64,000 nt of DNA from the NCBI GenBank assembly GCA_964510885.1, contig CAZEDL010000001.1:212663-276662 (forward strand), written 5' to 3'. A program made the translations under genes and the position numbers. This document shows, one piece after another, positions 33,945-64,000 of the stretch. Below the pieces are notes generated by a model. It had not been told where the DNA came from, did not search any database, and saw nothing but the letters and a program-made list of their open reading frames with translations. How positions within the stretch are numbered: position 1 is the first letter of the stretch; each line of letters opens with the position of its first letter. The DNA is from an uncultured Gammaproteobacteria bacterium (lineage in GTDB: Bacteria > Patescibacteriota > Patescibacteriia > Magasanikbacterales > GWA2-37-8).

Positions 33945-34017
33945 ACAATATTTAAATTGTTTGCATATATTACCATATAAATCTTAATATTGGTAGCGAT
34001 TTTAAAAAATAAAAAAA

Positions 34018-34350: not shown

Positions 34351-34406
34351 AGTTATAGTGATTTCAAAAATTATATACTACGACTGACATACCAGAATAA
34401 ATGCTG

Positions 34407-34865: not shown

Positions 34866-35167
34866 ACTAGGATACAGAACTTATTTACTTACTATTTTTC
34901 GCATTTTATATTTAATGACCCCGTATACGCAGGAAGATTATACTAATCATTATAAAGATGCAACACAGACATTTATTAAGCGATAGGCTGAATACGTAGA
35001 GGGTATAGAATTATTTTTTGAATTAATCTGACAGCTGGTTTAATGATGTGCAGATAAACAATTAAGAAACTGTACTTTTCATGAATGAACTGAGATAAAT
35101 GTATCTTTTTTGATCTAATTTTTTGAAGTAAAAACTAAGACACCGGCATTAAAGCTGCTGTCTTAAA

Positions 35168-35184
35168 TGTAGCCCGTACGGGAA
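35168..35184. repeat. Partial (17-bp) third copy of the tRNA-Glu att core
   Basis: TGTAGCCCGTACGGGAA identical to first 17 nt of the 24-bp repeat; diverges after. Confidence 0.55.
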
Positions 35185-35342
35185 ATCTTGTGCGTCGTCG
35201 CTACGCTCCTCCTACACAAAAACCTTCGGGTTTTCGTGGGCTTTCCTCCCCAGGTAAAAAACTCCATTTCTTACCATCTTGCGTGCGATTCAGTGGATCA
35301 AAAAACAAATAAAATACTCCCTTATTAAGGGAGTATTTTATT

Positions 35343-35366
35343 TGTAGCCCGTACGGGAATCGCACC
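35343..35366. repeat. Left att direct repeat (24 bp) of integrative element
   Basis: TGTAGCCCGTACGGGAATCGCACC identical to 42063-42086. Confidence 0.7.
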
Positions 35367-35568
35367 AACTCAAGCAAATTCTGAATTTTCCTACGGTTGA
35401 GCAATTATACGCTGACGTTAGCTAAAAGTCTAATTCTCATTCGTTCTCAAGTATCCGCATCCGTACTCCCCTTTCATCACTTTTTGGCCACAGGGTGGAC
35501 ACAAACTTTTAAGATGTTCAACGGCAACACAGAGAAAGTGATATTGCGGGGAAACCCGTATAGAAAAT

Positions 35569-36228
35569 TTATGGTAGAGGAAGGTTCTTGTCCTTCTTTC
35601 CAAAAAGGACGTAAATAAAGGCTTTATAGTAAAAAAGTAAGCCTCCGGCCACTAATCCTACCCAAGTTAAAACAGAAAATAAAATTGTTTGTATATAAAA
35701 AATGTAATTTCTCTGATACTTAACTATGTCTTGATATTCACAATTATTTCGATCATCTTTATTGATAAGACAAACCAAACTTTTCTCCTTGATTGTATTG
35801 ATAACATAAGTTTTCAAAAACTCCCTTTCTTTTCCTTGGTTATCATAATAATTAGGAATAATTACAGGCAACACCGAATCAAGAGAACTCAAAATATCTT
35901 TATTGCAATAACTATCTTTAGAAAGACTATACTCCGAAAGCCACTTATAATTATTTGCTGGTTTATCAAGGCATCCTAGCTCACCTTTTGTAGCCAAAAA
36001 ATCAGGCAATACATTGGTGGAGCTATCTACACTCTTGGTATATTCATTAAGATTTGAAATAATCTTAGTATTTGAAGGTTTTAATTGTAATAAGAAATAG
36101 TACGAAATCGGTATTAGAACTATTAGTAAGGAAATAATAAGAAAGAAAACCACCTTAAATAGCCTGTGCCACCATTTAGAATTTAAGTTTAAGTCTGGGC
36201 GAAAAAAATTATTATATCTTTGCTTCAT
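35569..36228 (-). CDS. Hypothetical membrane protein (island cargo)
   Basis: 219 aa, TM near N-term and C-term. Confidence 0.4.
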   Translation of the reverse strand: MKQRYNNFFRPDLNLNSKWWHRLFKVVFFLIISLLIVLIPISYYFLLQLKPSNTKIISNLNEYTKSVDSSTNVLPDFLATKGELGCLDKPANNYKWLSEYSLSKDSYCNKDILSSLDSVLPVIIPNYYDNQGKEREFLKTYVINTIKEKSLVCLINKDDRNNCEYQDIVKYQRNYIFYIQTILFSVLTWVGLVAGGLLFYYKAFIYVLFGKKDKNLPLP

Positions 36229-36305
36229 AATATTAAAAAAATTAACGCCTCACCTTTTCACTTTCGTAAACTTGCTTAAAATATTTCCTAGTTTTCATGT
36301 TATTT

Positions 36306-36665
36306 TTATCTAAATTTTTCTACCTCATTATCATAATCCGACCTTGTATCAACCGCTTTTATTTCTTTTCCTTCTAAAATGTCCTTCAGTACAAAGGATG
36401 TATAGACTTTTTCCTTGCCATTAAAATCGGCATGTGTGACTCTGGCTAAACCTTCTAAACACGTATCCAGCTTTGTGCTGTAAAAAATTTCCAACAGAGA
36501 AAGGTTGTTATAGGGAGAATTTTCAGTGTTATACTTTTCGATATTTTGTTTTTCAGTAGAAATATAGTTTGAACATTCAAGTTTTTTCTGAAAACTAATA
36601 TCATTTTTTGCACAACCCGCACCTATCATTAGAAAAATGATCAAGAAAAAACCTATTTTTCTCAT
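36306..36665 (-). CDS. Hypothetical lipoprotein (island cargo)
   Basis: Signal peptide + lipobox IGAGC. Confidence 0.45.
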   Translation of the reverse strand: MRKIGFFLIIFLMIGAGCAKNDISFQKKLECSNYISTEKQNIEKYNTENSPYNNLSLLEIFYSTKLDTCLEGLARVTHADFNGKEKVYTSFVLKDILEGKEIKAVDTRSDYDNEVEKFR

Positions 36666-36679
36666 AAATTATTGTTAAT

Positions 36680-37288
36680 TTATCTAAAAGTACTAGTAAC
36701 GGTACTTGAACTACTCAGACCCGTGTCTGTATTAAGCACACTAGTAACAGGGGCTATTTTTTTAGAAGTCGGATGTAGAAAACTTAAAAGGCTTCCCCAA
36801 TTAAACACCACCGCAATAACCAGAACAGCAAGAAGAGTGAAAAAACCTACTATAAAAAAGCTGTTAATTTTTTTTGTAATGGCAGAAAAGGCAATTTTTG
36901 TTGTTGGTAATTGTGCTTTATAAAAAGCATACACTAAGACTAAAAATCCTAAGTAGCCTAAATATCTTTTTAAACTAGACATTTGTCCAAATGCGCTGAT
37001 AATAATATAACCAACCAAACTAACAAGCATTGTTGTAAAAGGAAGTTTTTCTTCAAGATGGGCTAATAAACTAGGGACGTATTGGATACCATAATTGTCA
37101 CCGCCACCCAGCCCTTTCCTACTAGTCCAGTCATCTGACGAAGTACCCCCACCGCTCTTAGTGCCACCCTCTTGATTAACTGAATTAGGTTGCCCAAAAC
37201 TACTGATATCCTCAAAATTATCAGTATCTATAGAAACTCCGGTTGGTTTTTCGTTCGTATTCCTAGAATCAACCGCTCCGTTATTCAT
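36680..37288 (-). CDS. Hypothetical membrane protein with Gly/Ser-rich N-terminal region (island cargo)
   Basis: 202 aa; GGTKSGGGTSSDD low-complexity then 3-4 TM. Confidence 0.4.
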   Translation of the reverse strand: MNNGAVDSRNTNEKPTGVSIDTDNFEDISSFGQPNSVNQEGGTKSGGGTSSDDWTSRKGLGGGDNYGIQYVPSLLAHLEEKLPFTTMLVSLVGYIIISAFGQMSSLKRYLGYLGFLVLVYAFYKAQLPTTKIAFSAITKKINSFFIVGFFTLLAVLVIAVVFNWGSLLSFLHPTSKKIAPVTSVLNTDTGLSSSSTVTSTFR

Positions 37289-38003
37289 AGAAATATGTCA
37301 AAAAACCATTGTGTATTTCTTCGATTGCATTCACATTTGATTTACACAGGTTTAGTAATTGATCCGGATCCAAGACCATCTCTTTATTTTGATAGAAATC
37401 AATGCTACAAAAAGTGCCACAGTCACGCTTGAAATTTTCCGGATAAATCTTTTTATTTTCAAAAAACCGAGTAAAAGCCTCTTCTGCAGAAACAGGGCCG
37501 GTTTGAAAATTATACTTACCTTCAGATCGTTCGCAATCATTAAAGGTATAACCAAAATCTAATATTTTTGAATTAGTATAAGTTTCAAATGAGGCATAAT
37601 TTTTAAACATTTTTTCTTTATACCTTGTTTTTATATTCTCAAGGTTATCTGCGCTTCTATAGTTCAAAACCAAGGACTTTGTGCCGACCCGTATTAAAGA
37701 CTTGATGGGGTATTTATCAAATTTTCTTAAAATTCTAAATAAATCATCAATTTTATTACGAAACTCGCCAAAATCAGGAGAAGCTTCAATTTGAAGACCA
37801 AAATTTTCTAAACTAAAAAAAAGAAACTCTGAAAAATCTTCAGTAGCAACATCCACTCGATCGTTTGCCATTCTTATTTTTGTAAACTCTGAATTTCTAG
37901 ATATTAAATACTCCGCCATCTCGCCTTTAAAATCTATGAAAGAAAATTTTCTATTCTTTAATCGAATTTCTAGAAGATGCCTAATTATTTTTGTATCCGA
38001 CAT
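37281..38003 (-). CDS. Hypothetical protein (island cargo)
   Basis: 240 aa soluble, no recognised motif. Confidence 0.4.
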   Translation of the reverse strand: MSDTKIIRHLLEIRLKNRKFSFIDFKGEMAEYLISRNSEFTKIRMANDRVDVATEDFSEFLFFSLENFGLQIEASPDFGEFRNKIDDLFRILRKFDKYPIKSLIRVGTKSLVLNYRSADNLENIKTRYKEKMFKNYASFETYTNSKILDFGYTFNDCERSEGKYNFQTGPVSAEEAFTRFFENKKIYPENFKRDCGTFCSIDFYQNKEMVLDPDQLLNLCKSNVNAIEEIHNGFLTYFYE

Positions 38004-38129
38004 AATAGTAAATTCTATTTTAGAATAGAAATTAAAGCCTTGAATTTTAGAAATTTAAAATTTGTGTATAGGCTAATTTTGCTATACTATAGCAGAAAAT
38101 CAATATTTTACAAGCAAAATCCTCCCACT

Positions 38130-39242
38130 ATGCCCTCCCCTAACCCTCAAGTCGTCACCGCCATAGATACAGGTAAAATGTTAGAAAGACTACATTCTTC
38201 AACACAGACAACCGAGCAGAATTTTCTTCCTACGTTATTTGACTATCTAGAGTATATAGTTAAGAATCCAAAAACTAAGGCTCTGCTTCAGGAATTAGAA
38301 AAATCCCGAACAGATGCCTATAGCAGCTACTTTGAGCTTAAATCGAAGTCAAAAAAAGAACTTGAGAAATCAAAAAAAATACTCTTAGGAGCAGTCGCTA
38401 AAAATAAAATACAGAATCCTCAGCTAAAAGAGCGTACTGAAAACTGGAAACGTTATGAAAAAGGTGAAATAAGTAGCAACGCACTTTATGAGCACCGATT
38501 AGAAAGCTTTCTAATCGATATCTTCGATATTCTTTTTAAAGAGGGGTGCGGATCACTAATTGAGCCTTTATTTCCCAAAAATAACTATGGAAATTTGATT
38601 TTTTCTCCCTCTTTAGCCTTGTTTAAGAGAGAAAGTGAAAGGATAGACGAATTAAGAGATATTGAAATGTGGCATTGTTGGTATTCATTAAAATTTGTAC
38701 CCGAAATATCTAAACAAACTTTTGGCGATATAATGCACTCTCAAGGCCATTTAACTCACGAAGAGATCGGCTATTATTTTGACGCCTTACGTTTTAGGCA
38801 AGAGGGGCGAAAAGAAAAATCCAAGGATTATGAAGAGGATTTGCCAAAATATAAGGGCTATTTGAATCGACTGCACAACTATCTTGTTCAAAGATTGGAC
38901 GAAAGTAAAACCATTCCACTAGAGCAACCAATGACCCACAAGCTCAACTTTTTTCCAGCAGACGGAACAGCTCAATACAGAGGATCCAGCTATATATTCG
39001 CCTCAGGAACCAAAGGGCATGAATTATTAAACTTCTTATTTAACTCAAAAAATACCCCTTTAGAATTGCGCTACTTTCAAGAGCGATGTAACGAGAAAAT
39101 CAGGATCGGAAGGAATAAATTTAAAACAGACAAAGATATTTTAGACACGGTTAACCATATTAAAAAAAGACTGAAAGTGAATAAGAGTGAATACTTTCCT
39201 ATTTTTAAAACCGAAAAATGCTTTATTTGGGAGGAAAAATAG
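38130..39242 (+). CDS. Hypothetical protein (island cargo)
   Basis: start set at ATG 38130 (track ORF starts earlier and overlaps the divergent gene); terminator at 39300-39328. Confidence 0.4.
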   Translation: MPSPNPQVVTAIDTGKMLERLHSSTQTTEQNFLPTLFDYLEYIVKNPKTKALLQELEKSRTDAYSSYFELKSKSKKELEKSKKILLGAVAKNKIQNPQLKERTENWKRYEKGEISSNALYEHRLESFLIDIFDILFKEGCGSLIEPLFPKNNYGNLIFSPSLALFKRESERIDELRDIEMWHCWYSLKFVPEISKQTFGDIMHSQGHLTHEEIGYYFDALRFRQEGRKEKSKDYEEDLPKYKGYLNRLHNYLVQRLDESKTIPLEQPMTHKLNFFPADGTAQYRGSSYIFASGTKGHELLNFLFNSKNTPLELRYFQERCNEKIRIGRNKFKTDKDILDTVNHIKKRLKVNKSEYFPIFKTEKCFIWEEK

Positions 39243-39375
39243 CATTCACTCGGTTCACTTCATTCATCCACATAGAGAAGCAAAGAAAAACCCCATAGAA
39301 TCGTAGTATCAGACACTACGATTTTTTATTTAATACTTGGTTGCAAATCGCTGTTTTTCTTATCTGGCTTTTCCT

Positions 39376-39429
39376 GGGAGGGTTAGGCCGGAAGGTAAGC
39401 AGCGACTTGTTACCAATAACCCTCCCATG
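39376..39429 (+). promoter_or_regulatory. RBS-sequestering hairpin (GGGAGGGTTA…TAACCCTCCC) directly before start codon
   Basis: Perfect 10-bp inverted repeat, 31-nt spacer, 3' arm ends at ATG 39427. Confidence 0.45.
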
Positions 39430-40695
39430 GATACCGTCCGTCTAAAATTTAGCCATTACCTACCCAAAACTTCCTTTTTTAAGGATAAAGTTTTAAGTAA
39501 GGTTTTAGCCTTAGAATCAGGCGCAGGTAAGCGTTATATCTTCACCAACAACGAATGGCGTAAGCAGCGCCAAGCGCAAGGTTTGTATACTCCTAAATAC
39601 TGGATTGAGGAGGATGTTGTAATACCCTCAAATACTTTCTTCTATATCGAGTGCTCTCTGCCCAAGCTGCACTGGGGACAAAATATAACCGAACCAACAG
39701 ATACCGATTTAGAGCCTATAGTCGCCTCTCTAAGAGCTTTTTTGAGAGAAATTGAGGTATATGTCAGTACGGGTCAAATCCTCAACGCTACCCCTACTCT
39801 TGTAGCAGTAGGAAAGAATATTGATCTCACCCGTTTCTGCTCCGTCGACTTAACTCTAAAAGCACTTAGCCCTTTTGACTTCAAGCCAAAAACTAAGCAT
39901 CGGTTTATTGATTTTTTGGATTGTGAGCATGGGGGCAGGCAGATAATTTTTTCCAAAAAAGAAGAAACGCTTAAGCTCTACAACAAACTATCTGAAGTAG
40001 CCAATAATGCTATTACCGATAAAGAAAAAGCTGTAAGGCAGGCCGTTGAGAAGCAGCGTTACCGCTCAGAAGCTATCTATGTCAACGAAATGCTTAGAAC
40101 AGAGCTAACACTTAAAACAAGACGAAAGATAGAGAATAGATTTAAAAAGTACCTGCCTACTGGCCAAGAGGTGAATTTTCAAAATCTCTTCAAAAAATCA
40201 ATTTGGGATAAATTGCTAGCCGAAGAAATAGCGACCGTATATATGCACCCACTACGGCATTTTGTTTTTCTAGCACAAGAAAATAAGCCAATTATTGAGG
40301 CTTTCTTGGACAAAAACCACAAGCATATCGAGACGAAAGATACGGTAATGGGAATTATTGGCTCTTTACAGGAATATGGCCTAGCTCAAACCCGCCAGAG
40401 ATACTTGGCAAAATACGACAGCAGACAGACTTGGTACAACTATCTAAAACGGTTTAAAAAAATTGATGAAGCATACGATTTTAGTTCGCTGGCTAACTCT
40501 GATAATTACAAAATTTACTGCCATATTCTTGGACAATTTGGCTTAGATACTGCCGCCCAAGCTAGTTTTGATTTCGATACATTGTCTAAAAAACTAGACA
40601 GCGAGCAGTGTAATACTAATTGTGATAAACTAACAGCGACCAAGGCGGCTAGTCCGTCTTCTGTGTTGCTCTCTGACAATTTATATGGATGCTGA
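39427..40695 (+). CDS. Hypothetical protein; possible rolling-circle replication initiator (weak Rep_trans-like N-terminus)
   Basis: N-terminal DTVRLKFS resembles iDwLrfTf start of replication-initiation-factor family; otherwise unassigned. Confidence 0.3.
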   Translation: MDTVRLKFSHYLPKTSFFKDKVLSKVLALESGAGKRYIFTNNEWRKQRQAQGLYTPKYWIEEDVVIPSNTFFYIECSLPKLHWGQNITEPTDTDLEPIVASLRAFLREIEVYVSTGQILNATPTLVAVGKNIDLTRFCSVDLTLKALSPFDFKPKTKHRFIDFLDCEHGGRQIIFSKKEETLKLYNKLSEVANNAITDKEKAVRQAVEKQRYRSEAIYVNEMLRTELTLKTRRKIENRFKKYLPTGQEVNFQNLFKKSIWDKLLAEEIATVYMHPLRHFVFLAQENKPIIEAFLDKNHKHIETKDTVMGIIGSLQEYGLAQTRQRYLAKYDSRQTWYNYLKRFKKIDEAYDFSSLANSDNYKIYCHILGQFGLDTAAQASFDFDTLSKKLDSEQCNTNCDKLTATKAASPSSVLLSDNLYGC

Positions 40696-40921
40696 TTGTA
40701 CCCCACAATCCAAGCTCCGCTTTCTAACACCGCCAGAGGTGGCTGCTTTTCTGTGTATTTCCAAAGCCACTGTCTACCGCTTTATTGAGAAGCGAACCCT
40801 CCCCTTCTACAAAATCGGCGGATCAATCCGGTTTAAAGAAAGCGACGTTTTGGACTATATCGAACAGTGTCGGGTACAAACAGCTACAGAACTATATGAG
40901 CACACTAAAACGAGGAAATAA
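40685..40921 (+). CDS. Excisionase/AlpA-like helix-turn-helix DNA-binding protein
   Basis: LTPPEVAAFLCISKATVYRFIEKRTLPFYKIGGSIRF HTH_17 pattern; overlaps int start. Confidence 0.6.
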   Translation: MDADCTPQSKLRFLTPPEVAAFLCISKATVYRFIEKRTLPFYKIGGSIRFKESDVLDYIEQCRVQTATELYEHTKTRK

Positions 40922-42026
40922 CTGGTATATCGATTTCTGGTTTGACCGTATCCGATACCGTAAGCGTAGCCCTGACAATAGCAAAGCAGGGGCAGAGGCT
41001 TACGAAGTACTGCTACGCCAGAAACTAGCTCACGGAGAGCCGATTATAGAGGTTAAAGAGGTTGCTAAAAACATCCCCACCTTTGCAATCTTCTCTCAAG
41101 AGTGGCTAGCGTCGTACGTTCAGAACAATAATAAGTATTCCGAAGCTGAAAATAAACGCTCCGCCCTGAACTATAACCTTATCCCCTTTTTCGGGAAACT
41201 TCCTTTAGATCAGATTGCTACCCGTAACGTAGAGGAATACAAAGCTGCCAAGATTAAGGCTGGACTAAAAAACAAGAGCATCAACAATCATTTGTCTTGC
41301 CTCAGAAAATGCCTGACTACAGCTCAAGAATGGGAAATGCTCGAACATGTGCCAAAGATAAAGCTACTTAAAGTACCACCGCCAGAAACTAAATTCCTAA
41401 ACCAAGCAGAATGCGAACGGTTGCTCAAAGTGGCCACAAACAACTGGTACGACATGATTTTTACCGTCATGCGTACCGGCATGCGATTTGGCGAACTTGT
41501 TGCCCTGAAATGGTCGGATATAGACTTCAACGGAAGAATTATTACCATCCAACGAAGTATAGCCCGTGGAAAAATGGGCAGCACCAAAAGCAACAAAATC
41601 AGAAAAATCCCACTGGCTAGCGACCTATCAAGTCTGCTAGATAGAAAAAGAAGGAACGGAGTATTCGTTTTTGCGGATGGACAAGGGAATCTTCCTAAGC
41701 AGGACTTCTGTCGCAGCCACTTACTACGCCTAGCAGAAAAGGCCGATGTTGAACTTATTGGGTGGCACACTTTACGCCATACCTTCGCCTCGCATCTAGC
41801 TAATAACGGGGTAGCTGTTCATGTCATCCAGCAACTACTTGGACACTCCGACATTAAGACCACGATGCGCTACTCGCATATCGCTCCTACGACGCTGGTG
41901 AACGCAATTAGCGTACTTGAAAACAGCTCTCCACTGTTTTGGACACAGGATGGACACAAGCAAGAAAATTCTGAAATCGGACAGCTCTTCAAAACTTTTT
42001 CTTCGACTCGTATTTTCGCTCAATAA
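40896..42026 (+). CDS. Tyrosine-type site-specific integrase
   Basis: N-terminal arm-binding-like WYIDFWFDRIRYRKRS; C-terminal catalytic R…HTLRHTFAS…H…RY (LGHSDIKTTMRYSHI). Confidence 0.85.
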   Translation: MSTLKRGNNWYIDFWFDRIRYRKRSPDNSKAGAEAYEVLLRQKLAHGEPIIEVKEVAKNIPTFAIFSQEWLASYVQNNNKYSEAENKRSALNYNLIPFFGKLPLDQIATRNVEEYKAAKIKAGLKNKSINNHLSCLRKCLTTAQEWEMLEHVPKIKLLKVPPPETKFLNQAECERLLKVATNNWYDMIFTVMRTGMRFGELVALKWSDIDFNGRIITIQRSIARGKMGSTKSNKIRKIPLASDLSSLLDRKRRNGVFVFADGQGNLPKQDFCRSHLLRLAEKADVELIGWHTLRHTFASHLANNGVAVHVIQQLLGHSDIKTTMRYSHIAPTTLVNAISVLENSSPLFWTQDGHKQENSEIGQLFKTFSSTRIFAQ

Positions 42027-42197: not shown

Positions 42198-43487
42198 CTA
42201 TTTTTGCCATTCTGGACCCTGTCGCACTAACAATGCTTCTGCACGGAGCGGTTCATCCATCACTTCTTTAAGCACTCGCTCAAGACGCATACCCTGCGAT
42301 CCTTTGACCAACACGATATCGCCAGGTGATAATTTTTCCTGTAAAAATTTTCCGGCCGATGCGGTATCGGCAAAGCAAGCCACCTGGTGCTCTGGTAAAC
42401 CGGCCTCTTTAGCACCTTCAGCCGTAAGCTTACTGGCTTCGCCTACGGTAATAAGAAAATCGATATCATGTTCTGCTGCAGAAAAACCTACTTCGCGGTG
42501 AGCATCCCGAGTTTCTTCACCGAGTTCAAGCATGTCACCGAGTACGGCGTAGCGCTCGCCTCCAGGAGGAAGGCGGATTGAGCCGAGTGTCGCCAGGGCC
42601 GCTTTGGCGGCTTCGGGGCTAGAATTATAACTATCATCAATTAAAATAGTCTCTTTAACACCCGGAATCAGATGCATGCGCCCCGGGAGCGGTGTGAGCG
42701 ATCTGAGCAAGGCCGCAGCTTCGATAATATTAACCGAATAAACATCCGCTACTGCCAAAGCTGCCAGAGCAGGCAGCACCAGATGTTCGGCCACAATACC
42801 GGGCAAGAACATTGGCACGCTACTGCCTTTGAAATTAACTTTACAATTTATTCCGCTCGGCAGACCAGCGTCATCATACACAATATGAGCATCGGATGCC
42901 TGGAGTTCCGCATCATGCCGGAACCCATAGGTGATTACACGGGCTGAGGTGGCGGATATTTGTTCGCGCACCAACTCATTATCAATATTCAGAATAGCCA
43001 CACCTTCTGAGGTGAGGTGGCTGATAATTTTTTTCTTTTCTTGGGCAACTTTTTTTACGGTTTTAAAAAATTCAGTGTGGGCGCGACCAATCGCCGTTAG
43101 TACCCCAACATCACAGGGTGCGATATCAACCAAATAGCCAATATCCCCAGGCTTATCGGCAGCCATTTCGAGAACCAATAATTCCGGGTATGAAGGATCA
43201 GTAGACCACAAAAGTTTCTGCGCTTTAATAAACACCAGCGCCCAACCAAACAGCGATGATCCAGGTGAATCTTCTACCCCGATAACTGTAAGCGGCAACC
43301 CGATCTCATTATTATAATTTTTATGACTGGCACGCAGGCGGAATTTTATCTTCAGTACTGCTGCAATTGATTCTTTGGTTGAGGTTTTTCCGACCGAACC
43401 GGTAATACCAATAATTTTCGGCTGATATTTTTTAAGAATTTTTTTAGCATAACTAGCTAGCAATGAATGTAGGGTGTTAGTCAACAT
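42198..43487 (-). CDS. murF: UDP-N-acetylmuramoyl-tripeptide--D-alanyl-D-alanine ligase
   Basis: ITGSVGKTSTKE P-loop, Mur ligase three-domain pattern. Confidence 0.8.
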   Translation of the reverse strand: MLTNTLHSLLASYAKKILKKYQPKIIGITGSVGKTSTKESIAAVLKIKFRLRASHKNYNNEIGLPLTVIGVEDSPGSSLFGWALVFIKAQKLLWSTDPSYPELLVLEMAADKPGDIGYLVDIAPCDVGVLTAIGRAHTEFFKTVKKVAQEKKKIISHLTSEGVAILNIDNELVREQISATSARVITYGFRHDAELQASDAHIVYDDAGLPSGINCKVNFKGSSVPMFLPGIVAEHLVLPALAALAVADVYSVNIIEAAALLRSLTPLPGRMHLIPGVKETILIDDSYNSSPEAAKAALATLGSIRLPPGGERYAVLGDMLELGEETRDAHREVGFSAAEHDIDFLITVGEASKLTAEGAKEAGLPEHQVACFADTASAGKFLQEKLSPGDIVLVKGSQGMRLERVLKEVMDEPLRAEALLVRQGPEWQK

Positions 43488-43490
43488 AGA

Positions 43491-45242
43491 TTAGCGTTCT
43501 TCTTTAATCGTATAATACTGTAGCACAAACTTCATAATATCGTGAAATACGGGGGCGGCGGTAGATTCGGCAAACTGACGGGCAGGCGCTTCGTATTTTA
43601 CAACCACTACAAAACCCGGGTCACGGGCAGTGGCAAACCCGACCAAGGTATGATTGGTATTATCACCATACCCTCCGCCAGCTGAGGCAATTTGCGCGGT
43701 ACCCGTTTTTCCCCCGATATAATAATGGTCAAACTTAGCCAATCTGTAGCTGCTGCCGCGGTCTACTACCGCCACCAGCATACCCGTAATTAGTTTGGCG
43801 GCGGCGGGTGAAATGGCCTGTTCTACCAGCTGCGGGATGGTTTTATCTTTATGGCCGTCTGGATAACGGATTTCCTCCACAATATAGGGCTTTGGGAGTT
43901 GGCCTTCATTAACGAGCGCGGAATAGGCAGCAGCCAGCTGGAGCGGCGTCGCAGTCAACCCCTGTCCAAACGAACCGACGGCCCCATAAATGGGAGATTT
44001 CTTACTGAGCGAAGAGATGTCGCCACCCGCTTCGGTAGGAAGAGTAATGCCAGTACGTTCACCAAAACCAAATTTTTCTACATATTTTCGAAAACGATCG
44101 ATGCCAATTTTTTCTTGCACCCAGATCATACCTGTGTTAATCGAATTTTCTAACACGCCAGTCATGGTCTGTTTTCCGTAACATTTATTCAAGGCATTGC
44201 GGATGGGTTTAGGAAAACCCGAAATCAATCGTTCGCAGGGGTCAACAAAGGTGGTATCAGGGTTTACGAGTCCTAGATCAAGGGCAATTGCCATCGTAAT
44301 AGGCTTAAATACCGAACCCGGTTCATAGGAAGTAAATACACTGGTGTTGTTAAAGGCGCGAAGATCTGGATTGGCGGAATAATTATTTGGGTCAAAATCG
44401 GGCACACTACACATGGCAATAATAGCTCCAGTCTTCGGATTCATTATTACGAGCGAAGCGCTTTTAGCCTGGTAGTCAGCTAACCCCTGACGCAATCGTT
44501 CGCAGGCCATGTATTCAATAGTACGATCGATAGTGAGGAGGACATCCGCCCCATTTTCGGACGGGCGCAGGGTGCGGCCGGCGAGCGTGATCCAGCTGCC
44601 AAGGGCGCCGCGGGCACCAAGCACAAAGCCCGGTTTGCCGGCTAATTTATTATTTAAAAAATCTTCGACGCCATAATGCCCCACTAAATCACCGGCATCA
44701 TTAAAACTGGCAAATCCGAGCACGGGGCCAGCACTGCCACCTTCGGGATAATACCGAAATTCTTGTGGTGAAAAATAAATACCTTTTAACTTACGAGCTT
44801 TTATCGCCGCTACAGTTTCTTCACTGACTTTGCGTTCAATAGGTTCGTAGACATCGGTGCTGCGACTAAGGCGATCGGTGAGCGTTTTTATTTTGTCAGC
44901 ACTGTCGTATCCAAATAGACTCGCCAGCTGGGCGCTGGTAGTGGCAACGTCTACAGCAGGGATCTCTTTTGGAACGGCAAAAGCCAGATAGAACTGTTTG
45001 TTAACCGCTACCGGATACTCTTGTTTGGTGCGCGTATCTTGAAACAAAATTGCTCCTCGCTTGGGGTGTAACTGCTGATAAATCTCATGACTATTTAGGG
45101 CAAATAAATTGTAATAATCATGATTGATCACTTGGAGCATGAACAGACGAAATAGCACCCAGCCGGCAATCAGCAAAAAAAACAACGCCACAAGGCGCAA
45201 GCGATTATCAGTTGATGGAGCAGAAGAAGTTGGTTTATGCAT
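43491..45242 (-). CDS. Penicillin-binding protein 2 / FtsI-type peptidoglycan D,D-transpeptidase
   Basis: N-terminal TM anchor; SVFK, SIN, KTGT motifs. Confidence 0.8.
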   Translation of the reverse strand: MHKPTSSAPSTDNRLRLVALFFLLIAGWVLFRLFMLQVINHDYYNLFALNSHEIYQQLHPKRGAILFQDTRTKQEYPVAVNKQFYLAFAVPKEIPAVDVATTSAQLASLFGYDSADKIKTLTDRLSRSTDVYEPIERKVSEETVAAIKARKLKGIYFSPQEFRYYPEGGSAGPVLGFASFNDAGDLVGHYGVEDFLNNKLAGKPGFVLGARGALGSWITLAGRTLRPSENGADVLLTIDRTIEYMACERLRQGLADYQAKSASLVIMNPKTGAIIAMCSVPDFDPNNYSANPDLRAFNNTSVFTSYEPGSVFKPITMAIALDLGLVNPDTTFVDPCERLISGFPKPIRNALNKCYGKQTMTGVLENSINTGMIWVQEKIGIDRFRKYVEKFGFGERTGITLPTEAGGDISSLSKKSPIYGAVGSFGQGLTATPLQLAAAYSALVNEGQLPKPYIVEEIRYPDGHKDKTIPQLVEQAISPAAAKLITGMLVAVVDRGSSYRLAKFDHYYIGGKTGTAQIASAGGGYGDNTNHTLVGFATARDPGFVVVVKYEAPARQFAESTAAPVFHDIMKFVLQYYTIKEER

Positions 45243-57134: not shown

Positions 57135-57161
57135 GTCATTCCCGCGAATGCGGGAATCCAG
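57135..57161. repeat. REP-like palindromic element copy A (GTCATTCCCGC-GAAT-GCGGGAATCCAG)
   Basis: 8-bp stem ATTCCCGC/GCGGGAAT, loop GAAT. Confidence 0.6.
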
Positions 57162-57267: not shown

Positions 57268-59538
57268 TCAATTCTCCCACCAGCGACCAGTTTCAAACAT
57301 TTCGCGTTTCCATTTGTAGACTTGTAATAATTCGCATTCGGTGAGCGGGGCGGTAGACGAGACTGATGTTTCGGTAATCGGAGCACACTCAAGGTGCCCA
57401 GGGACATCATAAGAAATTTTACGTCTGCCGCCTACGGCTTCATTGATGTAGAGGCCGAGCTCGTGCATACCTACCACATTTGGATATTTTTGACGATCGG
57501 CAAAGATAGAATACCCCTCAAATGAACTGGGCGCATTTATACCAAGCATATGAAGCAGTGTTGGGGCCACATCGATGCTTGAGGCGGTGGTGGTCACTTG
57601 CTTTGGCAACACCGTATCCGGCACATACATCAAGAAAAAATTCTCATCGTAATAGCTAAGCTGCTTAGCTTCTTTGGCAAACAGATCGGTGGTGAGGGCG
57701 GCCGGAAAAATGGCATGGTCGGCCACGGCGATGACAATAGTGTTACTGGCAAAACGGCTCGCTTTGAATCCTTGCCAGAATTTTAAAAAGGCATCGTCGG
57801 TGGTGTGAAATGAATTTAATACCAGTTGTTTGCCGTCGCCGTAGGGAACCGTATCTTTGGCTAGGTCAAACGGCGGGTGCGTGTCTACGGTTGCGAGCAT
57901 GGTGACTGAAGGCTCGGGAGATTTGGCCAAAAATTCCGTCACGGCCGGGAATAATTGATGATCGGAATAGCCCCATGCCAGCGGAGCGCCGGAAATATAA
58001 TCCTTAAGCTCGTCGGTGCCATAGACTTTATCTACGCCCGCACTGGTGAAAATACCATCTTTATGGGCAAAATCTTTGTCGACCGCGGTCAGATAATTAA
58101 CTTCTTTGTACCCACCCTGCCGTTTTAATAGTTCTGGAAAGCAGAGCAGGTGGTGGGCTTGAAGCTTGCGATCATTCTGAATTTCGTTGTGGCCGGTGGG
58201 AGGCAAGAAGGAGCACAGTTGCGACAAGGTGCCGGTGATGGTAGGCGTGGAGCCGTTAAAATAATTATGAAACACGGTGGTATTTGGATCAGCCGCCATA
58301 GTGTTGAACCCGGGGGTGAGATCGGCAAAACGCGGATTGTAGACGCCGGTCATGCGGGCGGAAAAAGATTCAAGCAGCAGAATCACGATATTTGGATGAT
58401 TGGTCTGCAGGCGGCTCGGCAATAATTTTTGTGTGGAGGAAGTAAATAATGTCTCGCGGTGGGCCGGCTTAGATGCCTCGGGGTTATAGTTAAGGCCAAA
58501 GCGCTGCATTTTTTTTTGCAGAGCAACGGGCAATAGTACGTGCTGTTCAGTCCCCTGCCAGCGCTGCATAAAGGTGCGTAGCACCACTCGCTCTGGCGCA
58601 GTCCGAAAAGAACTAAGGCCAAGCAGGAAGAATAGCCCGCCGGCAATGAGGCCGCTCTGGTACCACGACCAGTAACGAGCCGGAGTCTTGCTCTGAGCCT
58701 TGATTAACCTGACTAGAACGTAGATAAAACTGAGGAGTGCGATAATCCCGACTGCAATGACCAGGTAGACAAAATTGTTCTCAGCTACCCCTTCGCCACC
58801 ACCGCGGTGATCCCAGATCACCGGACTAAAATAGAGGCCGGAAAAATAGAGCACCGAAATGTTGGCTACCCAAAAAATAATGTTGAATATAAATAATGAA
58901 CCCCACAGAGTTACGCCGGCATACCGCCAATAGCGGGGTAGACGCTGATAGATAAAACTGGCTAGGGCAAAACCAATCAGCCAGAAGCCTGTCATAGATA
59001 CCACCCGGAACACCACGATATTAAAATATTTTATATCAGCATCGAGAATATAGTAGTGGTAAGAGGCATATTGGCAGAGCGCCTGAAACCAGAAGACAAA
59101 ATACCCCATGGCAAACATGTGGCGGTGAGTACTCAGCCACGGGCCAGCATTGGGGTGAGTCTGAAGTTCGCGATCGACGCGCCAGAATATAAACGGGAAT
59201 AGCAGGGCCGCGTAGCCGAGACTCAGCAGTTCATTTTTAGAAAAGAAAATCAGGAAAAATAAAGACAACAGGAAGATGAATTGCGGTAGAAAATCCTGAA
59301 ATTCTTTTTGCCAGAACGGATGCCGGGAAAAGCGCCGCACCAACCAATGATAGGCGTATAGCCCAGTTTCAATGGCAATAAATACAGCCAGAGACAGTGC
59401 GGCCACAATTATTACAAACCGCAGGTGATTATGCTTCACCAAATGATACCACCCCCACCCACCGGCAATAATACCGGCAGCGAGGCCGGTATAGAGGTGC
59501 TTTTTGACGAAGGCAATGATCCAGCTAAGAACTTTCAT
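57268..59538 (-). CDS. LTA-synthase/sulfatase-family membrane protein (polytopic N-domain + extracytoplasmic alkaline-phosphatase-like domain)
   Basis: 756 aa; ~10 TM N-terminus; C-terminal sulfatase-like region (…ILLLESFSARMTG…). Confidence 0.6.
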   Translation of the reverse strand: MKVLSWIIAFVKKHLYTGLAAGIIAGGWGWYHLVKHNHLRFVIIVAALSLAVFIAIETGLYAYHWLVRRFSRHPFWQKEFQDFLPQFIFLLSLFFLIFFSKNELLSLGYAALLFPFIFWRVDRELQTHPNAGPWLSTHRHMFAMGYFVFWFQALCQYASYHYYILDADIKYFNIVVFRVVSMTGFWLIGFALASFIYQRLPRYWRYAGVTLWGSLFIFNIIFWVANISVLYFSGLYFSPVIWDHRGGGEGVAENNFVYLVIAVGIIALLSFIYVLVRLIKAQSKTPARYWSWYQSGLIAGGLFFLLGLSSFRTAPERVVLRTFMQRWQGTEQHVLLPVALQKKMQRFGLNYNPEASKPAHRETLFTSSTQKLLPSRLQTNHPNIVILLLESFSARMTGVYNPRFADLTPGFNTMAADPNTTVFHNYFNGSTPTITGTLSQLCSFLPPTGHNEIQNDRKLQAHHLLCFPELLKRQGGYKEVNYLTAVDKDFAHKDGIFTSAGVDKVYGTDELKDYISGAPLAWGYSDHQLFPAVTEFLAKSPEPSVTMLATVDTHPPFDLAKDTVPYGDGKQLVLNSFHTTDDAFLKFWQGFKASRFASNTIVIAVADHAIFPAALTTDLFAKEAKQLSYYDENFFLMYVPDTVLPKQVTTTASSIDVAPTLLHMLGINAPSSFEGYSIFADRQKYPNVVGMHELGLYINEAVGGRRKISYDVPGHLECAPITETSVSSTAPLTECELLQVYKWKREMFETGRWWEN

Positions 59539-59542
59539 GCGA

Positions 59543-59914
59543 TTATTCTTCAGGGTTATATTCTTTGGCGGCGCGAGCGCCGAGCTTTTGTTTTTTTTCG
59601 TTGCCGTTCATGGTTACTTTATGTTTTTTAAGCTCAAGCTCAAGATAATCCCGAATTTTATCAATAGCCTTATATAACGTCTCTTCATTTTTGGAAGCAA
59701 ACAAATCGTTCCCGGCCACGCTGAGGCGGCATTCGGCCATAAAGACATCGCCTTTTTGATGGTGTTTTGAGTCTTGACCGACTACCACTTCGGCTTTGAT
59801 AATTGGGCTAAAAAATTTTTCAAGACTCTCAATTTTTTTATGCGTATATTCTTCGATAGCTGGGGTAAGACTAATACCTTTACCGGTGATATTGATTTGC
59901 ATATTTTTTTTCAT
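59543..59914 (-). CDS. hpf: Ribosome hibernation-promoting factor (HPF/RaiA, S30EA family)
   Basis: INITGKGISLTPAIEEY…KAEVVV pattern. Confidence 0.8.
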   Translation of the reverse strand: MKKNMQINITGKGISLTPAIEEYTHKKIESLEKFFSPIIKAEVVVGQDSKHHQKGDVFMAECRLSVAGNDLFASKNEETLYKAIDKIRDYLELELKKHKVTMNGNEKKQKLGARAAKEYNPEE

Positions 59915-60175: not shown

Positions 60176-61120
60176 TCAATATGTTTTCATGATCTGTACT
60201 TCTGGCTCAAGTTTGACCCCAAAGTTAGTATACGCCCTACTAACTACTTCTTCAACCACGGCGAGCACGTCTGCCTGCGTCGCCTTATCAGCATTGACCA
60301 AAAAGTTGCCGTGCTCTTTTGAAACCATTGCGCCACCCACTTGGTAGCCCTTTAATTTATTTTGCTCCGTAGTCCAACCGGCCGGCACCTCCTGTTTGAT
60401 TTTAAATGACGCGGGGAGAAGTGACTTATCGCCCGGCCAAACCGAAAACGGAATATTCTTGAAAAAACTGCCAGCTGAAGGAGCGGCGGGGTATTTTCCA
60501 TTGCGGCCTTTAATCGTGGCTTGCATGGTTTGCATTAGTTCGAGCTTGTTGCCCGGAGAAGTTTTGAACCACGCGCGGATAACCACGTCGGTGTTATGTT
60601 TAAAGATGCTGTCGCGATATCCATAGGCACAGTCTTCTGGCCGGAGCATGATAACTTCACCATCGCGCCAGACTTCAATTTGGCGGAGTGATCGGCTGGT
60701 GTCACTATCCATGGCCCCAGCATTACCACGCACGGCACCTCCCACAGTCCCCGGCATTCCGGCGGCCCACTCGAGGCCAGCCAAATTATTCTGAACCGCC
60801 AGCATGACCAGGGCCGCAAAGGGAGCGCCTGCCTCGGCTATAATTTCTTGGCCGTCGATTTTTATGCCCTGGGTGGCCACCTTTATAACTACCCCTTCCC
60901 ATGCTTCATCCTGCCATAAGAGGTTTGATCCTCCGCCTAAAATAAAATAGGGCACCCCTTCGCCTACTAAAAAATTGAGGAGCTTAATTAGGTTATCCGA
61001 GTCCATGACCTCAACCATATATTGCGCTGGCCCACCAATATGGAAAGTCGTATATTTACTCATCAGCGCATTTGAGCGGACGCGGCCGTAGGTTTGTAAG
61101 TCTTTATATAATGTATCCAT
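60176..61120 (-). CDS. murB: UDP-N-acetylenolpyruvoylglucosamine reductase
   Basis: FAD-binding HIGGPA…GGGSNLL pattern, 314 aa. Confidence 0.85.
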   Translation of the reverse strand: MDTLYKDLQTYGRVRSNALMSKYTTFHIGGPAQYMVEVMDSDNLIKLLNFLVGEGVPYFILGGGSNLLWQDEAWEGVVIKVATQGIKIDGQEIIAEAGAPFAALVMLAVQNNLAGLEWAAGMPGTVGGAVRGNAGAMDSDTSRSLRQIEVWRDGEVIMLRPEDCAYGYRDSIFKHNTDVVIRAWFKTSPGNKLELMQTMQATIKGRNGKYPAAPSAGSFFKNIPFSVWPGDKSLLPASFKIKQEVPAGWTTEQNKLKGYQVGGAMVSKEHGNFLVNADKATQADVLAVVEEVVSRAYTNFGVKLEPEVQIMKTY

Positions 61121-61244
61121 AAAATGCCTTAACTGAGCGGTATTATACTTATTATTACTTCGTATTTCGGCCGTCTATTTCAGTGCCTAGGACAGCGTTG
61201 ACGGCGGTTGCCAACTGCATCTTTTTTTAGTATACTACCCGCCT

Positions 61245-62477
61245 ATGAAAGCCCTTGAATTAGCGCTAAAAAAGGCTCCTATAGTCTATGTTACCCGCGA
61301 TATTGAGCGGGCTCTTGGGCTGCCCGCAGGGGTTAAAAACTATGTCATCATAACAAATGCCACCCCCTTTGCAAAGGAAATAGCCAAAGGGCGGCAGAAT
61401 GTTATGCTTGTCGGAGGCAAGAAGCTGCTTGATACACGAGAGCTACTCGCACACTCTGCCACCAAACGATACGTGAAAAAATTAAGCTCGCCGCGGATTG
61501 TAGTGTTTAAGAACACTCAGGCAATTGAACGAGAGTGCTTAAAAAATGGCTGGCAGCTTTTGAATCCGTCGGCAGTAGTCGCGAGCGCGATTGAAGAAAA
61601 AATTAGCCAAGTAGCCTGGCTCGGGCCACTACAAAAATATTTGCCGCCCCACCGGATTGTCACCTGCAAGCAGGTACGTTTTACTGGCACGCCGTTTATT
61701 ATGCAATTCAACCGGGCGCACACCGGCAGCGGCACCATGCTCATTTCAAATGACGGCGAATTAGCAGAATTTCAAAACCTGTTTCCAGATCGACCAGTTA
61801 GAATTACGGAGTATATCACCGGGCCTTTATTTACCAATAACAACGTGGTATGGGACACCACTGTGTTGACCGGTAATATCAGCTGCCAAATCACCGGACT
61901 GCCACCATTTACCAGTCGGCCATTTGCTACCATTGGCAATGATTGGAAATTACCACACCATATTTTAAATAAAAAGCAATTACAGCAGTTTAATAAAATG
62001 GCAACTGACATTGGCAAACAACTTCAGAAGAGCGGGTGGCGCGGATTGTTCGGGATTGATGTGGTGCTCGATGCAAAGACTAAAAAATTATACCTGATAG
62101 AAATTAATGCCAGGCAGCCAGCGAGCACTACCTACGAATCAGAGCTGCAACAACTGGTTAAAAAGAAAAAAGCGACTTCGCTAACTACTTTTGCAGCACA
62201 TCTGTCTGCGTTACTCGAACTGCCGTATAAAAAAGAAACACTAGCACCGATTAGCGACGGGGCGCAGGTTGTACAAAAAAGAATTACGAATAAAGAATTA
62301 CGAATTAAGGAGTGTGCGAAGAAACTTAAAGCTAAAGGATTTAACATTATTTCCTATACGAATACTGAGCCAGAATCAGATTGGCTACGTATTCAAAGCA
62401 AGACTAGCCTAATGAAAAATTACCAGATGTTTAATGAACAGGGAGCGATGATTCAAAAAATGTTAGCGGAATTATAA
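61245..62477 (+). CDS. ATP-grasp domain protein of unknown specificity
   Basis: LYLIEINARQP ATP-grasp catalytic loop; does not match canonical Ddl N-terminus. Confidence 0.6.
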   Translation: MKALELALKKAPIVYVTRDIERALGLPAGVKNYVIITNATPFAKEIAKGRQNVMLVGGKKLLDTRELLAHSATKRYVKKLSSPRIVVFKNTQAIERECLKNGWQLLNPSAVVASAIEEKISQVAWLGPLQKYLPPHRIVTCKQVRFTGTPFIMQFNRAHTGSGTMLISNDGELAEFQNLFPDRPVRITEYITGPLFTNNNVVWDTTVLTGNISCQITGLPPFTSRPFATIGNDWKLPHHILNKKQLQQFNKMATDIGKQLQKSGWRGLFGIDVVLDAKTKKLYLIEINARQPASTTYESELQQLVKKKKATSLTTFAAHLSALLELPYKKETLAPISDGAQVVQKRITNKELRIKECAKKLKAKGFNIISYTNTEPESDWLRIQSKTSLMKNYQMFNEQGAMIQKMLAEL

Positions 62478-62491
62478 TATTAAGTGAACGA

Positions 62492-62518
62492 CTGGATTCC
62501 CGCCTACGCGGGAATGAC
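62492..62518. repeat. REP-like palindromic element copy C (inverted orientation; loop CTAC/GTAG) with adjacent degenerate copy
   Basis: CTGGATTCCCGCCTACGCGGGAATGAC; degenerate CTGGATTCTCC…GGGAACGACAA at ~62547-62575. Confidence 0.6.
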
Positions 62519-62578
62519 AATGAATGATAAAGAACCTGGATTCTCCAAACTGAACCCCGGGAACGACAATAAAAGTAT

Positions 62579-63397
62579 ATGCTGTCACCAAAAGCTGAAC
62601 AACTTATTAACGACTATTTTAATCTGCCGTTTGCCGGCATCCCGGGAGTGCGCTGCCCGTATTTTAATAATGCTATACTCAGGCGGCGCGCCGAGTTGCG
62701 AGCCCTGATTGGGAAAGGCACGCCAAAAGAAATCGTGGATGAGGCCAAAATTATTTCACTGCAGTATCACACCGGTTTATTTGATACCAGCGGCAACTGC
62801 TGTTTGCATAATGAACATACCGGAGAAAAAACTACTCCAGAACAAATCAGAAAATTTTTAATTGAACGCAAACTCGGGGTTGAATGTTCTGGTTTTGTAA
62901 CTCAAGTGCTCAGCGCTCACTATTTAGAAAGCAAAAAAATAGTGTTGACCAAAAAATTAACCATCTGCCCGCGCACCCGGCTACTACGTCGTGTAATTTG
63001 TCGTCTGCGTCCGATTGAAAATTGCGGTGTTACCGTGTATGCGGATAATGATAATACAAGTGTTGTCGTAGGCAGCAGCGGGCCATACGCTTACCACAAT
63101 GTACAACCGGGTGATGTTATTGTCTTAATCGGGGCTGGGCCACGCAAGAATCATAATCATATTTTACTCATTACTGATGTCACTAATTCTGTCATCAGCT
63201 ATACCCATGCCCGGGCTTGGAAAAGCGAAGGGTTGTATGGACATGGGGTGGCTCGTGGCACAATTACGATTGTAAATCCTGGCAATAATCTGCTGGCACA
63301 AAGGTTTGAAGAAAATGGTATGATCGGTGCTGACAATGAAACATTTGTGGAAATGACCGAGGCTCAGCAGCTCGAAATTAGACGCGTGAATGTATGA
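62579..63397 (+). CDS. Hypothetical protein with candidate Cys/His papain-like (CHAP/NlpC-P60-type) signature
   Basis: GVECSGFV (Cys) … NHNHILLITDV (His) ~80 aa apart; weak. Confidence 0.35.
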   Translation: MLSPKAEQLINDYFNLPFAGIPGVRCPYFNNAILRRRAELRALIGKGTPKEIVDEAKIISLQYHTGLFDTSGNCCLHNEHTGEKTTPEQIRKFLIERKLGVECSGFVTQVLSAHYLESKKIVLTKKLTICPRTRLLRRVICRLRPIENCGVTVYADNDNTSVVVGSSGPYAYHNVQPGDVIVLIGAGPRKNHNHILLITDVTNSVISYTHARAWKSEGLYGHGVARGTITIVNPGNNLLAQRFEENGMIGADNETFVEMTEAQQLEIRRVNV

Positions 63398-64000
63398 TGC
63401 CTTTTTCCGTTAACCTGCTCGAACAAGCGCTGATGTTCATGATCGGAGCCACTGTATTGTCGGCTCTTTTGGCACCACTCTTAACCAAACTTTTATATCA
63501 TTTTAAGATTACTCGGCGCAGTGAATTTGATTTCACCTTGAGCGGCGCGCGAGCGGCCAAGGCCGGCACCCCGACTATGGGGGGCATATTGGTCATAGTC
63601 ACGGTTATTATTATCACCGTCTTATTTAATTGGGAACGTAGATACACCTATGTGCCGATTGGGGCTATGGGTATTGCCGCCCTTCTTGGTGCAGCTGATG
63701 ACCTGTTAAATATCTTTGGGGCAACACGGCGAATCAGGAATTTGAAGCACACACTGACTCTGATGCGCGTGCATAAACACTGGTATACCCGCGCCTGGCA
63801 TGCGCTCACGGTGCCATGGGCTGCATTCCGTCATTTCGTCCAGGTGCTTGGTTCAAAAAATCCAGGGCGGGGTCTGCAGGTACACGAAAAATTGCTCTTA
63901 CAATTTTTGGCTGGGGCGGTAACTGCGTGGTGGGTATATTTTAAACTAGGAGAAAGCTGGCACACGCTGTGGGTGCCGTTTGTTGGCGAATGGGCTATTG
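63394..64000 (+). CDS. mraY: Phospho-N-acetylmuramoyl-pentapeptide transferase (partial, continues past window)
   Basis: KAGTPTMGG motif; ATG overlaps previous stop (ATGA). Confidence 0.8.
   Translation, partial: MMPFSVNLLEQALMFMIGATVLSALLAPLLTKLLYHFKITRRSEFDFTLSGARAAKAGTPTMGGILVIVTVIIITVLFNWERRYTYVPIGAMGIAALLGAADDLLNIFGATRRIRNLKHTLTLMRVHKHWYTRAWHALTVPWAAFRHFVQVLGSKNPGRGLQVHEKLLLQFLAGAVTAWWVYFKLGESWHTLWVPFVGEWAI

Follow-up and report, generated by a model that had tools for sequence, protein, structure and literature searches.

A ligase gene and an amidase gene between murB and mraY

The 64-kb window, i.e., the whole stretch of DNA that we analysed on contig CAZEDL010000001.1, carries two adjacent plus-strand genes between murB and mraY. 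The first, open reading frame A (ORF-A, 61245..62477), encodes a predicted ATP-grasp carboxylate-amine ligase of 410 aa, the sequence of which includes KLYLIEINARQPAS. The second, ORF-B (62579..63397), encodes a 272 aa protein predicted to be a cytoplasmic Cys-His-His amidohydrolase of the NlpC/P60 fold. Its sequence includes LGVECSGFVTQ and KNHNHILLITDV (NHNHILLITDV). Upstream lies the divergent murB gene (UDP-N-acetylenolpyruvoylglucosamine reductase, 60176..61120, minus strand), which matches the Pfam models MurB_C (1.2e-25) and FAD_binding_4 (7.7e-18). Downstream, the 5′ part of mraY (phospho-MurNAc-pentapeptide translocase, 63394..64000, plus strand) runs past the window end. This fragment matches the NCBIfam models mraY and MraY_archaea and is 69–82% identical to full-length orthologues. 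The orthologue in locus L003 scores 190.7 bits with TIGR00445 mraY vs. 116 bits for the archaeal type, and MraY is thus of the bacterial type. The initial annotation had described an ATP-grasp gene and a Cys/His gene of these sizes between murB and mraY, which is confirmed by the reading frames, the murB models and an overlap of mraY with ORF-B (see below).

Both ORFs are real genes. Homologues of ORF-B number 197 in 90% identity clusters (E ≤ 1e-3) and 458 when counted as representatives of 50% clusters, and at least 1421 homologues of the ATP-grasp protein were found. The mean column identity in the alignments sampled was 54% and 32%. All named homologues belong to Candidatus Magasanikbacteria (Magasanikiibacteriota, Parcubacteria group, Patescibacteria) or to unclassified Patescibacteria, and they are annotated as hypothetical or generically as “ATP-grasp domain-containing protein.” The system appears specific to Magasanikbacteria-type bacteria of the Candidate Phyla Radiation (CPR). 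Many third-party records of metagenome-assembled genomes with a Magasanikbacteria-type locus are titled “uncultured Gammaproteobacteria bacterium,” which is almost certainly a placeholder or a mislabel.

We found no family model or functional annotation for the pair, nor any description of it in the literature on peptidoglycan of Magasanikbacteria and CPR bacteria, ATP-grasp enzymes, Ddl and NlpC amidoligases. Scans with PADLOC and PHROGs gave no matches and thus no sign of a role in defence or in phages. The pair does not fall into any enzyme family that has been characterised. Its members are placed in the ATP-grasp and NlpC/P60 superfamilies by their folds and catalytic residues, and they lie below every curated family threshold.

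The AlphaFold model of ORF-A is confident (pLDDT 94) and displays the three-domain ATP-grasp fold. Residues K119, D272, E286, N288, and R290 are invariant across 55 ATP-grasp homologues. The last three belong to the EINAR motif (E286-I-N288-A-R290, codons at 62100..62114 as read from the sequence), in which Glu and Asn are the Mg ligands and Arg is the catalytic residue. Thus, the expected Mg/ATP-binding and catalytic residues are in place with one departure: canonical ATP-grasp enzymes have a lysine on the ATP-binding strand (VIIKA in biotin carboxylase), whereas this family has an invariant glutamine (FIMQF; Gln154, codon at 61704–61706). A further block, QITGLxPFTxxPFATIGNDW, is invariant and specific to the family, and Y15, D19, E21, and R22 are conserved in the N-terminal domain. 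The invariant catalytic residues point to a competent carboxylate-amine ligase of the ExNxR class and not to an ordinary Ddl.

This structural class includes PurK, PurD, biotin carboxylase, the L-amino-acid ligases (BL00235, RizA, BacD), PGM1, PylC, BesA, and LdmS. ORF-A shares just 10–17% sequence identity with these relatives and lies below every family-model cut-off, and unlike ORF-A none of them is paired with a cysteine amidase. Sequence models detect the generic ATP-grasp core only, slightly below threshold: PF02655 scores 22.8 bits on ORF-A against a gathering score of 23.2, and many homologues carry a precomputed match to this model. The best NCBIfam match is to PRK06524 (6.8e-13), an uncharacterised “biotin carboxylase” family. 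Searches of ORF-A, ORF-B and their family profiles against PDB sequences gave chance-level matches only. Two identities for ORF-A were rejected. Although its best fold match is PurK, it matches no PurK model, and neither its partner nor its context fits purine synthesis. As to Ddl, the initial annotation had doubted that the protein is a canonical D-Ala-D-Ala ligase, and we agree: no Ddl sequence model reaches its cut-off, Ddl is not the nearest fold, and the sequence lacks Ddl-specific features.

For ORF-B the AlphaFold model is likewise confident (pLDDT 88) and shows a papain-like alpha+beta fold of the NlpC/P60 type. The motifs follow in canonical order, i.e., (D/E)CSG with C103, PGD with D179, NH with H194, and xHA with H210, and the triad is arranged as in NlpC/P60 enzymes, with the Cys at a helix N-terminus, the His located on a strand and a polar residue at the third position. 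We assessed conservation in 129 representatives clustered at 50% identity and in an alignment of 60 sequences (A1). Cys103 (codon 62885..62887, in G-V-E-C-S-G-F) is Cys in 127 representatives and invariant in A1, and His194 (codon 63158..63160, in N-H-I-L-L-I) is His in all 129. At the third position, His210 (codon 63206..63208, in Y-T-H-A), all 129 have His (118), Gln (7), or Asn (4), which are the usual NlpC/P60 alternatives. D179 is found in 128, and position 102 is Asp or Glu. These observations substantiate the catalytic Cys, the catalytic His and the papain-like fold that had been suggested from the motifs GVECSGFV and NHNHILLITDV, and predict that ORF-B is a competent Cys-His-His amidohydrolase.

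Library models (Pfam, NCBIfam) do not match ORF-B of the window, the gathering threshold of NLPC_P60 not being reached. Among 60 homologues, weak matches are seen to NLPC_P60 (39, best 2e-4), Amidase_6 (16, best 6.7e-6), and CHAP (2). ORF-B has a family-specific N-terminal domain (approximately residues 1–95) with near-invariant P27, Y28, N31, G45-K46-G47, and E55, an insertion of ∼40 residues that separates the Cys helix from the His strand, and a near-invariant R144. The sequence CCLHNEH (residues 74–80) was considered as a zinc site. We rejected it as a general feature because the insertion that contains it is confined to the subclade of the window, the positions being gapped in 127 of the 129 representatives.

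Neither protein has a signal peptide or a transmembrane segment. ORF-B has no hydrophobic N-terminus, and its maximum Kyte–Doolittle value over 19 residues (KD19) is 0.81. Both proteins are therefore cytoplasmic, which for ORF-B also follows from its fusion to the C-terminus of the cytoplasmic ligase in some homologues. The known NlpC/P60 (MEROPS C40) peptidases, such as MepS, the YkfC-type gamma-D-Glu-L-diamino-acid endopeptidases, CwlO, and LytE, share with ORF-B the fold and the order of the triad motifs (DCSG, PGD, xH, xHA). Most characterised members are secreted or targeted to the wall, whereas ORF-B lacks a signal peptide and wall-binding domains. It also differs from them in the extra ∼95-residue N-terminal domain, the ∼40-residue insertion and the obligate coupling or fusion to a ligase.

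Coupling of the two genes and their cell-wall context

The genomic context was compared across 87 sources, namely the window and 86 related loci. In 85 of these, ORF-B immediately follows the ligase gene in the same orientation, with a median gap of 45 nt. The two exceptions are L027, where the contig ends 120 nt past the ATP-grasp gene, and L074, where a different ORF takes this place. In addition, an exhaustive profile search showed that 26 of 149 representatives of the ORF-B family are fusions of 612–779 aa with ORF-B as the C-terminal part. The N-terminal ∼400 residues of these are the ATP-grasp protein (46% identical over residues 1–411 in P0259, 34% in P0342). The two parts are joined end to end without a linker, and the fusions take the same genomic position as the split pair. 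Such natural fusions are strong Rosetta-stone evidence that the ligase and the amidase work as one enzyme system, and they bear out the earlier idea of a split synthetase/amidase.

In the window, the ATG of mraY at 63394 overlaps the stop codon of ORF-B by 4 nt (ATGA), and no terminator-like site was found on the plus strand between ORF-A, ORF-B and mraY. A sigma-70-like promoter match (TTGCCA-17-TATACT, 61208..61236, plus strand; 10 of 12 positions in a consensus scan) lies directly 5′ of the ATP-grasp start codon and is a pattern only, not evidence of function. The pair is predicted to form an operon with mraY, its transcription being linked to that of mraY and murB.

The 101-nt spacer between ORF-A and ORF-B contains a palindrome, TTCCCGC-N4-GCGGGAA, at 62497–62514, which yields a spurious ORF, “WIPAYAGMT.” Two further copies are located at 164–181 and 57139–57156; the three copies in the window compare with none expected by chance. 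The palindrome is a small repeated element.

The cell-wall context occurs in three arrangements, with murB divergent, with mraY downstream, and with mraZ-rsmH divergent. Commonly, one strand carries an LtaS-like sulfatase gene, the gene for HPF, and murB. The other strand carries the ligase (with or without a NUDIX domain), the amidase, mraY, an arginyltransferase-like gene and a MurC/Mpl-like ligase, followed by a LysW-like zinc ribbon gene (reverse) and a threonine-synthase-like pyridoxal phosphate (PLP) enzyme (PALP). The divergent murB is found upstream of the ATP-grasp gene in 82 of the 87 sources, where the aligned starts of the two genes are a median of 79 bp apart. Many contigs end early, and the downstream counts are therefore lower bounds: at least 59 sources have mraY, at least 52 the transferase-like gene and at least 46 the Mur ligase. 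The pair is conserved in murB-mraY clusters, a point that the initial annotation had proposed to check.

Variants of this order were also seen. An unrelated methylase gene replaces murB in L169 and L170, where the fusion, mraY, transferase, Mur ligase, LysW-like and PALP genes are kept. In L088 the LysW-like, PALP, and fusion genes are contiguous and occur with mraY, adjoined by FemAB and aminotransferase genes. The pair of L030 stands divergent to mraZ-rsmH, which heads the dcw cluster. A domain of the NUDIX (nucleoside-diphosphate-X hydrolase) type, whose Nudix box (GGTLENREKEQETARREILEETGL) is intact, is either fused to the C-terminus of the ligase, as in L003:9553–10011, or encoded by a separate gene between the ligase and the amidase, as in L051:6567–6959. 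It was found in 12 of 87 and in 8 of 29 loci as well as in 21 of the 120 top ligase homologues, i.e., in a minority of lineages, and the genome of the window lacks it.

The ftsI-murF genes of the window (42198..45242, minus strand) lie ∼18 kb from mraY. The canonical order ftsI-murF-mraY is kept in L147:6636–10836, where the pair is absent. From this it seems that the murB-ligase-amidase block was joined to mraY secondarily. The pair is a lineage-specific module of a ligase and an amidase, often fused and of known folds, that is set in a precursor operon of a CPR phylum.

Possible reactions and substrates

The reading that we tentatively favour, with a probability just short of even, is that ORF-A and ORF-B each supply half of a single cytoplasmic enzyme, which would have the peptide of a cytoplasmic peptidoglycan precursor as its target. 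By analogy with its structural class, the ATP-grasp half would activate a carboxylate as an acyl-phosphate and join it to an amine. The NlpC/P60 half would use the triad of Cys103, His194, and His210 to cleave an amide, with the thioester formed on Cys103. The likeliest substrate would be the peptide of UDP-MurNAc-peptide or of the lipid-linked precursor, or else free stem peptides that enter precursor synthesis. The ligase could add a residue beyond those added by the Mur ligases or tRNA-dependent transferases, e.g., a D-amino acid on a side-chain amine, and the amidase could cut a gamma-glutamyl-type or isopeptide bond in trimming, editing, or recycling. The folds, active-site residues, cytoplasmic location, strict pairing or fusion and cell-wall neighbourhood are observed, whereas the substrate and the direction of both reactions are inferred. 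Support comes from the repeated and differently arranged links to cell-wall genes, the usual preference of NlpC/P60 enzymes for stem peptides, the ATP-grasp precedents Ddl and Asl, and the association with NUDIX domains.

NlpC/P60 enzymes characteristically cleave bonds of the stem peptide, such as gamma-D-Glu-diamino acid. Among ATP-grasp ligases, both Ddl and Asl already act in the synthesis of peptidoglycan precursors. Ddl, which is encoded in the dcw clusters of many bacteria, is like VanA an ATP-grasp enzyme of precursor synthesis, as we propose for ORF-A. In the cytoplasm of Enterococcus faecium, the D-aspartate ligase Asl(fm) attaches a D-amino acid to the side chain of Lys in UDP-MurNAc-pentapeptide. 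In function, this enzyme comes nearest to the ligase step that we propose; it is not known to have a partner amidase. The association with NUDIX domains suggests a substrate that bears a pyrophosphate as well as a peptide. Methanogens offer a parallel in gene context: in their pseudomurein cluster A, an ATP-grasp gene that is not a Ddl lies beside genes for an MraY-like protein and a Mur-type ligase (PMC11915815). That cluster has no described cysteine amidase partner, and the MraY encoded next to our pair is of the bacterial type. The match of ORF-A to the NCBIfam model “Ddl_archaea” is weak (2.5e-5) and covers 57 residues of the generic core, at 23 bits vs. a cut-off of 500.

Several points weigh against a precursor-peptide enzyme. 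L037 carries the fusion without any cell-wall gene within 8 kb, and L147 lacks the pair upstream of mraY. All synteny comes from one lineage, so that its counts are inflated by shared ancestry. In the ligase, the canonical strand lysine is replaced by Gln154, and the closest structures (PurK, PurD, biotin carboxylase) are not peptide ligases. Moreover, a ligase and a hydrolase fused together would run a futile cycle if they acted on the same bond, unless regulated, and the evidence for the substrate is indirect. Finally, an obligate fusion of a synthetase and a Cys-His hydrolase is more typical of amidotransferases.

The last point leads to the main rival, an amidotransferase, which we consider unlikely. 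Here the NlpC/P60 protein would be a glutaminase (or asparaginase) working via a gamma-glutamyl thioester, and the ammonia would be channelled to an acyl-phosphate that the ATP-grasp protein forms on a precursor carboxylate, e.g., in the conversion of D-iso-Glu to D-iso-Gln. Constant co-occurrence and linker-less fusion are the usual pattern of a synthetase and its glutaminase, and the chemistry of NlpC/P60 enzymes on gamma-glutamyl amides suits glutamine as a substrate. The N-terminal domain and the insertion of ORF-B, with the near-invariant residues given above including R144, could close the groove or form an interface. The ligase is also in the same ExNxR class as carbamoyl-phosphate synthetase and biotin carboxylase. 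The pair would work like MurT/GatD, or like carbamoyl-phosphate synthetase with its ATP-grasp large subunit and Cys-His glutaminase, without being homologous to them. However, ORF-B has none of the known glutamine amidotransferase folds (class I triad, N-terminal nucleophile, nitrilase, or amidase signature) but the NlpC/P60 fold, which leaves a functional analogy, and we know of no glutaminase subunit of this fold.

The nearest comparison for such an activity is the lipid II amidotransferase MurT/GatD, a co-transcribed, cytoplasmic two-gene system acting on a peptidoglycan precursor, and an operon with mraY would likewise suit a lipid-linked precursor (PMC3266927, PMC6085368). Like the pair, MurT/GatD combines an ATP-dependent activator of a carboxylate with a Cys-His amidohydrolase. 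The pair shows neither the Mur-ligase fold of MurT nor the class I glutamine amidotransferase fold of GatD. If the amidase is a glutaminase, the pair would stand in for MurT/GatD in CPR bacteria without being homologous to it and would represent a new amidotransferase architecture, with a fold that is new among the known glutaminase domains.

It is improbable that the pair has nothing to do with the wall and runs a cycle like that of glutathionylspermidine synthetase/amidase (GspSA), in which the ligase makes and the amidase breaks a small amide (thiol-polyamine or gamma-glutamyl), its wall neighbours being an accident of the lineage. The resemblance to GspSA had been pointed out in the initial annotation, and it holds for the architecture: GspSA and trypanothione synthetase-amidase also combine a ligase with a papain-clan amidase. 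It does not extend to homology. GspSA has an N-terminal CHAP amidase and a C-terminal Gsp-type synthetase, whereas in the pair the amidase is not CHAP, the ligase is not of the Gsp-synthetase type, and the domain order is reversed. The single-lineage synteny and the locus without cell-wall neighbours, both noted above, would fit this explanation.

Rather doubtful, too, is a substitute for Ddl coupled to a dipeptidase, in which the ATP-grasp protein would make D-Ala-D-Ala (or a variant) for MurF and the amidase would destroy unwanted dipeptides, following the logic of VanA/VanX. A dipeptide donor is needed because MurF is encoded in the window (42198..43487; TIGR01143, 285 bits), and the ligase resembles the L-amino-acid (dipeptide) ligases. 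A tblastn search with an E. coli DdlB query found no Ddl-like sequence, either in the 64-kb window or across ∼2 Mb of related loci, a result that applies to this neighbourhood and implies no genome-wide absence. Against such a role, the ligase lacks the sequence features of Ddl, and a dipeptidase permanently fused to a dipeptide ligase is hard to explain.

Least probable is a carrier pathway after the LysX/LysW/LysK scheme, in which the ATP-grasp protein would load an amino acid on the DEGK tail of the LysW-like protein for modification by the PLP enzyme and release by the amidase as an unusual stem-peptide amino acid: a LysW-like protein of 53–55 aa with an invariant C-terminal (V/I)DEGK (NCBIfam LysW, 4.4e-7) is present in the same cluster in 37 loci, and contiguous with PALP and the fusion in L088, but its gene accompanies PALP in 56 of 56 loci and is found apart from the pair in L161, and we downgraded it as a carrier for the ligase because LysW-PALP is a separable unit. 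The genes do not match the LysW/LysX system, in which a RimK/LysX-type ATP-grasp protein is genetically linked to a carrier ending in EDWGE.

CPR bacteria (Patescibacteria) make up a large uncultured share of bacterial diversity and have minimal genomes in which peptidoglycan synthesis is retained. Since the genomes are minimal, the peptidoglycan steps that are kept are likely to matter. An unannotated, lineage-wide pair in a murB/mraY operon points to a precursor step outside the textbook Mur pathway, which could be branching, amidation, editing, or salvage. The neighbouring arginyltransferase-like transferase, MurC/Mpl-like ligase and LysW-like/PLP pair lend further weight to the idea that the stem peptide is non-canonical. 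The natural fusions are a ready construct for biochemistry.

Neighbouring genes and other features of the window

The arginyltransferase-like gene between mraY and the MurC/Mpl-like ligase encodes ∼224 aa (L003:12006–12680, plus strand; NCBIfam PRK01305, 1e-10, with ATE/Bpt models). Judged by these matches, the protein is probably an aminoacyl-tRNA-dependent transferase with a FemX-like role on the precursor. In its place, L088 carries a true FemAB gene. A census of the Mur ligases in the related loci gave 106 MurC-like and 3 MurF-like proteins, 11 MurC-like fragments and 1 unclassified partial ligase, a tally from which nothing follows for murD or murE.

The gene for the LysW-like zinc ribbon (CPEC…CxxC; L003:14066–14227, minus strand) always stands divergent beside that of the threonine-synthase-like PLP enzyme (L003:14293–15171, plus strand). 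The two are usually located at the end of the cell-wall cluster, beyond the 3′ end of the window, and stand alone beside SHMT in L161. From its conserved tail, the LysW-like protein may serve the PLP enzyme as a partner or in the manner of a carrier.

Upstream of murB, the gene for the ribosome hibernation factor HPF (59543–59914, minus strand) is found in 76 of the 87 sources, and that for an LtaS-like protein of 756 aa with a hydrophobic N-terminal half and a sulfatase domain (57268–59538, minus strand) in 39. Further upstream, the region 34000–42026 comprises a stretch of low GC content (0.32–0.38 vs. ∼0.46 elsewhere) and, after it, a tyrosine integrase gene (40785..42026) that abuts murF. 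This region may be an integrated element that parts ftsI-murF from the other cell-wall genes.

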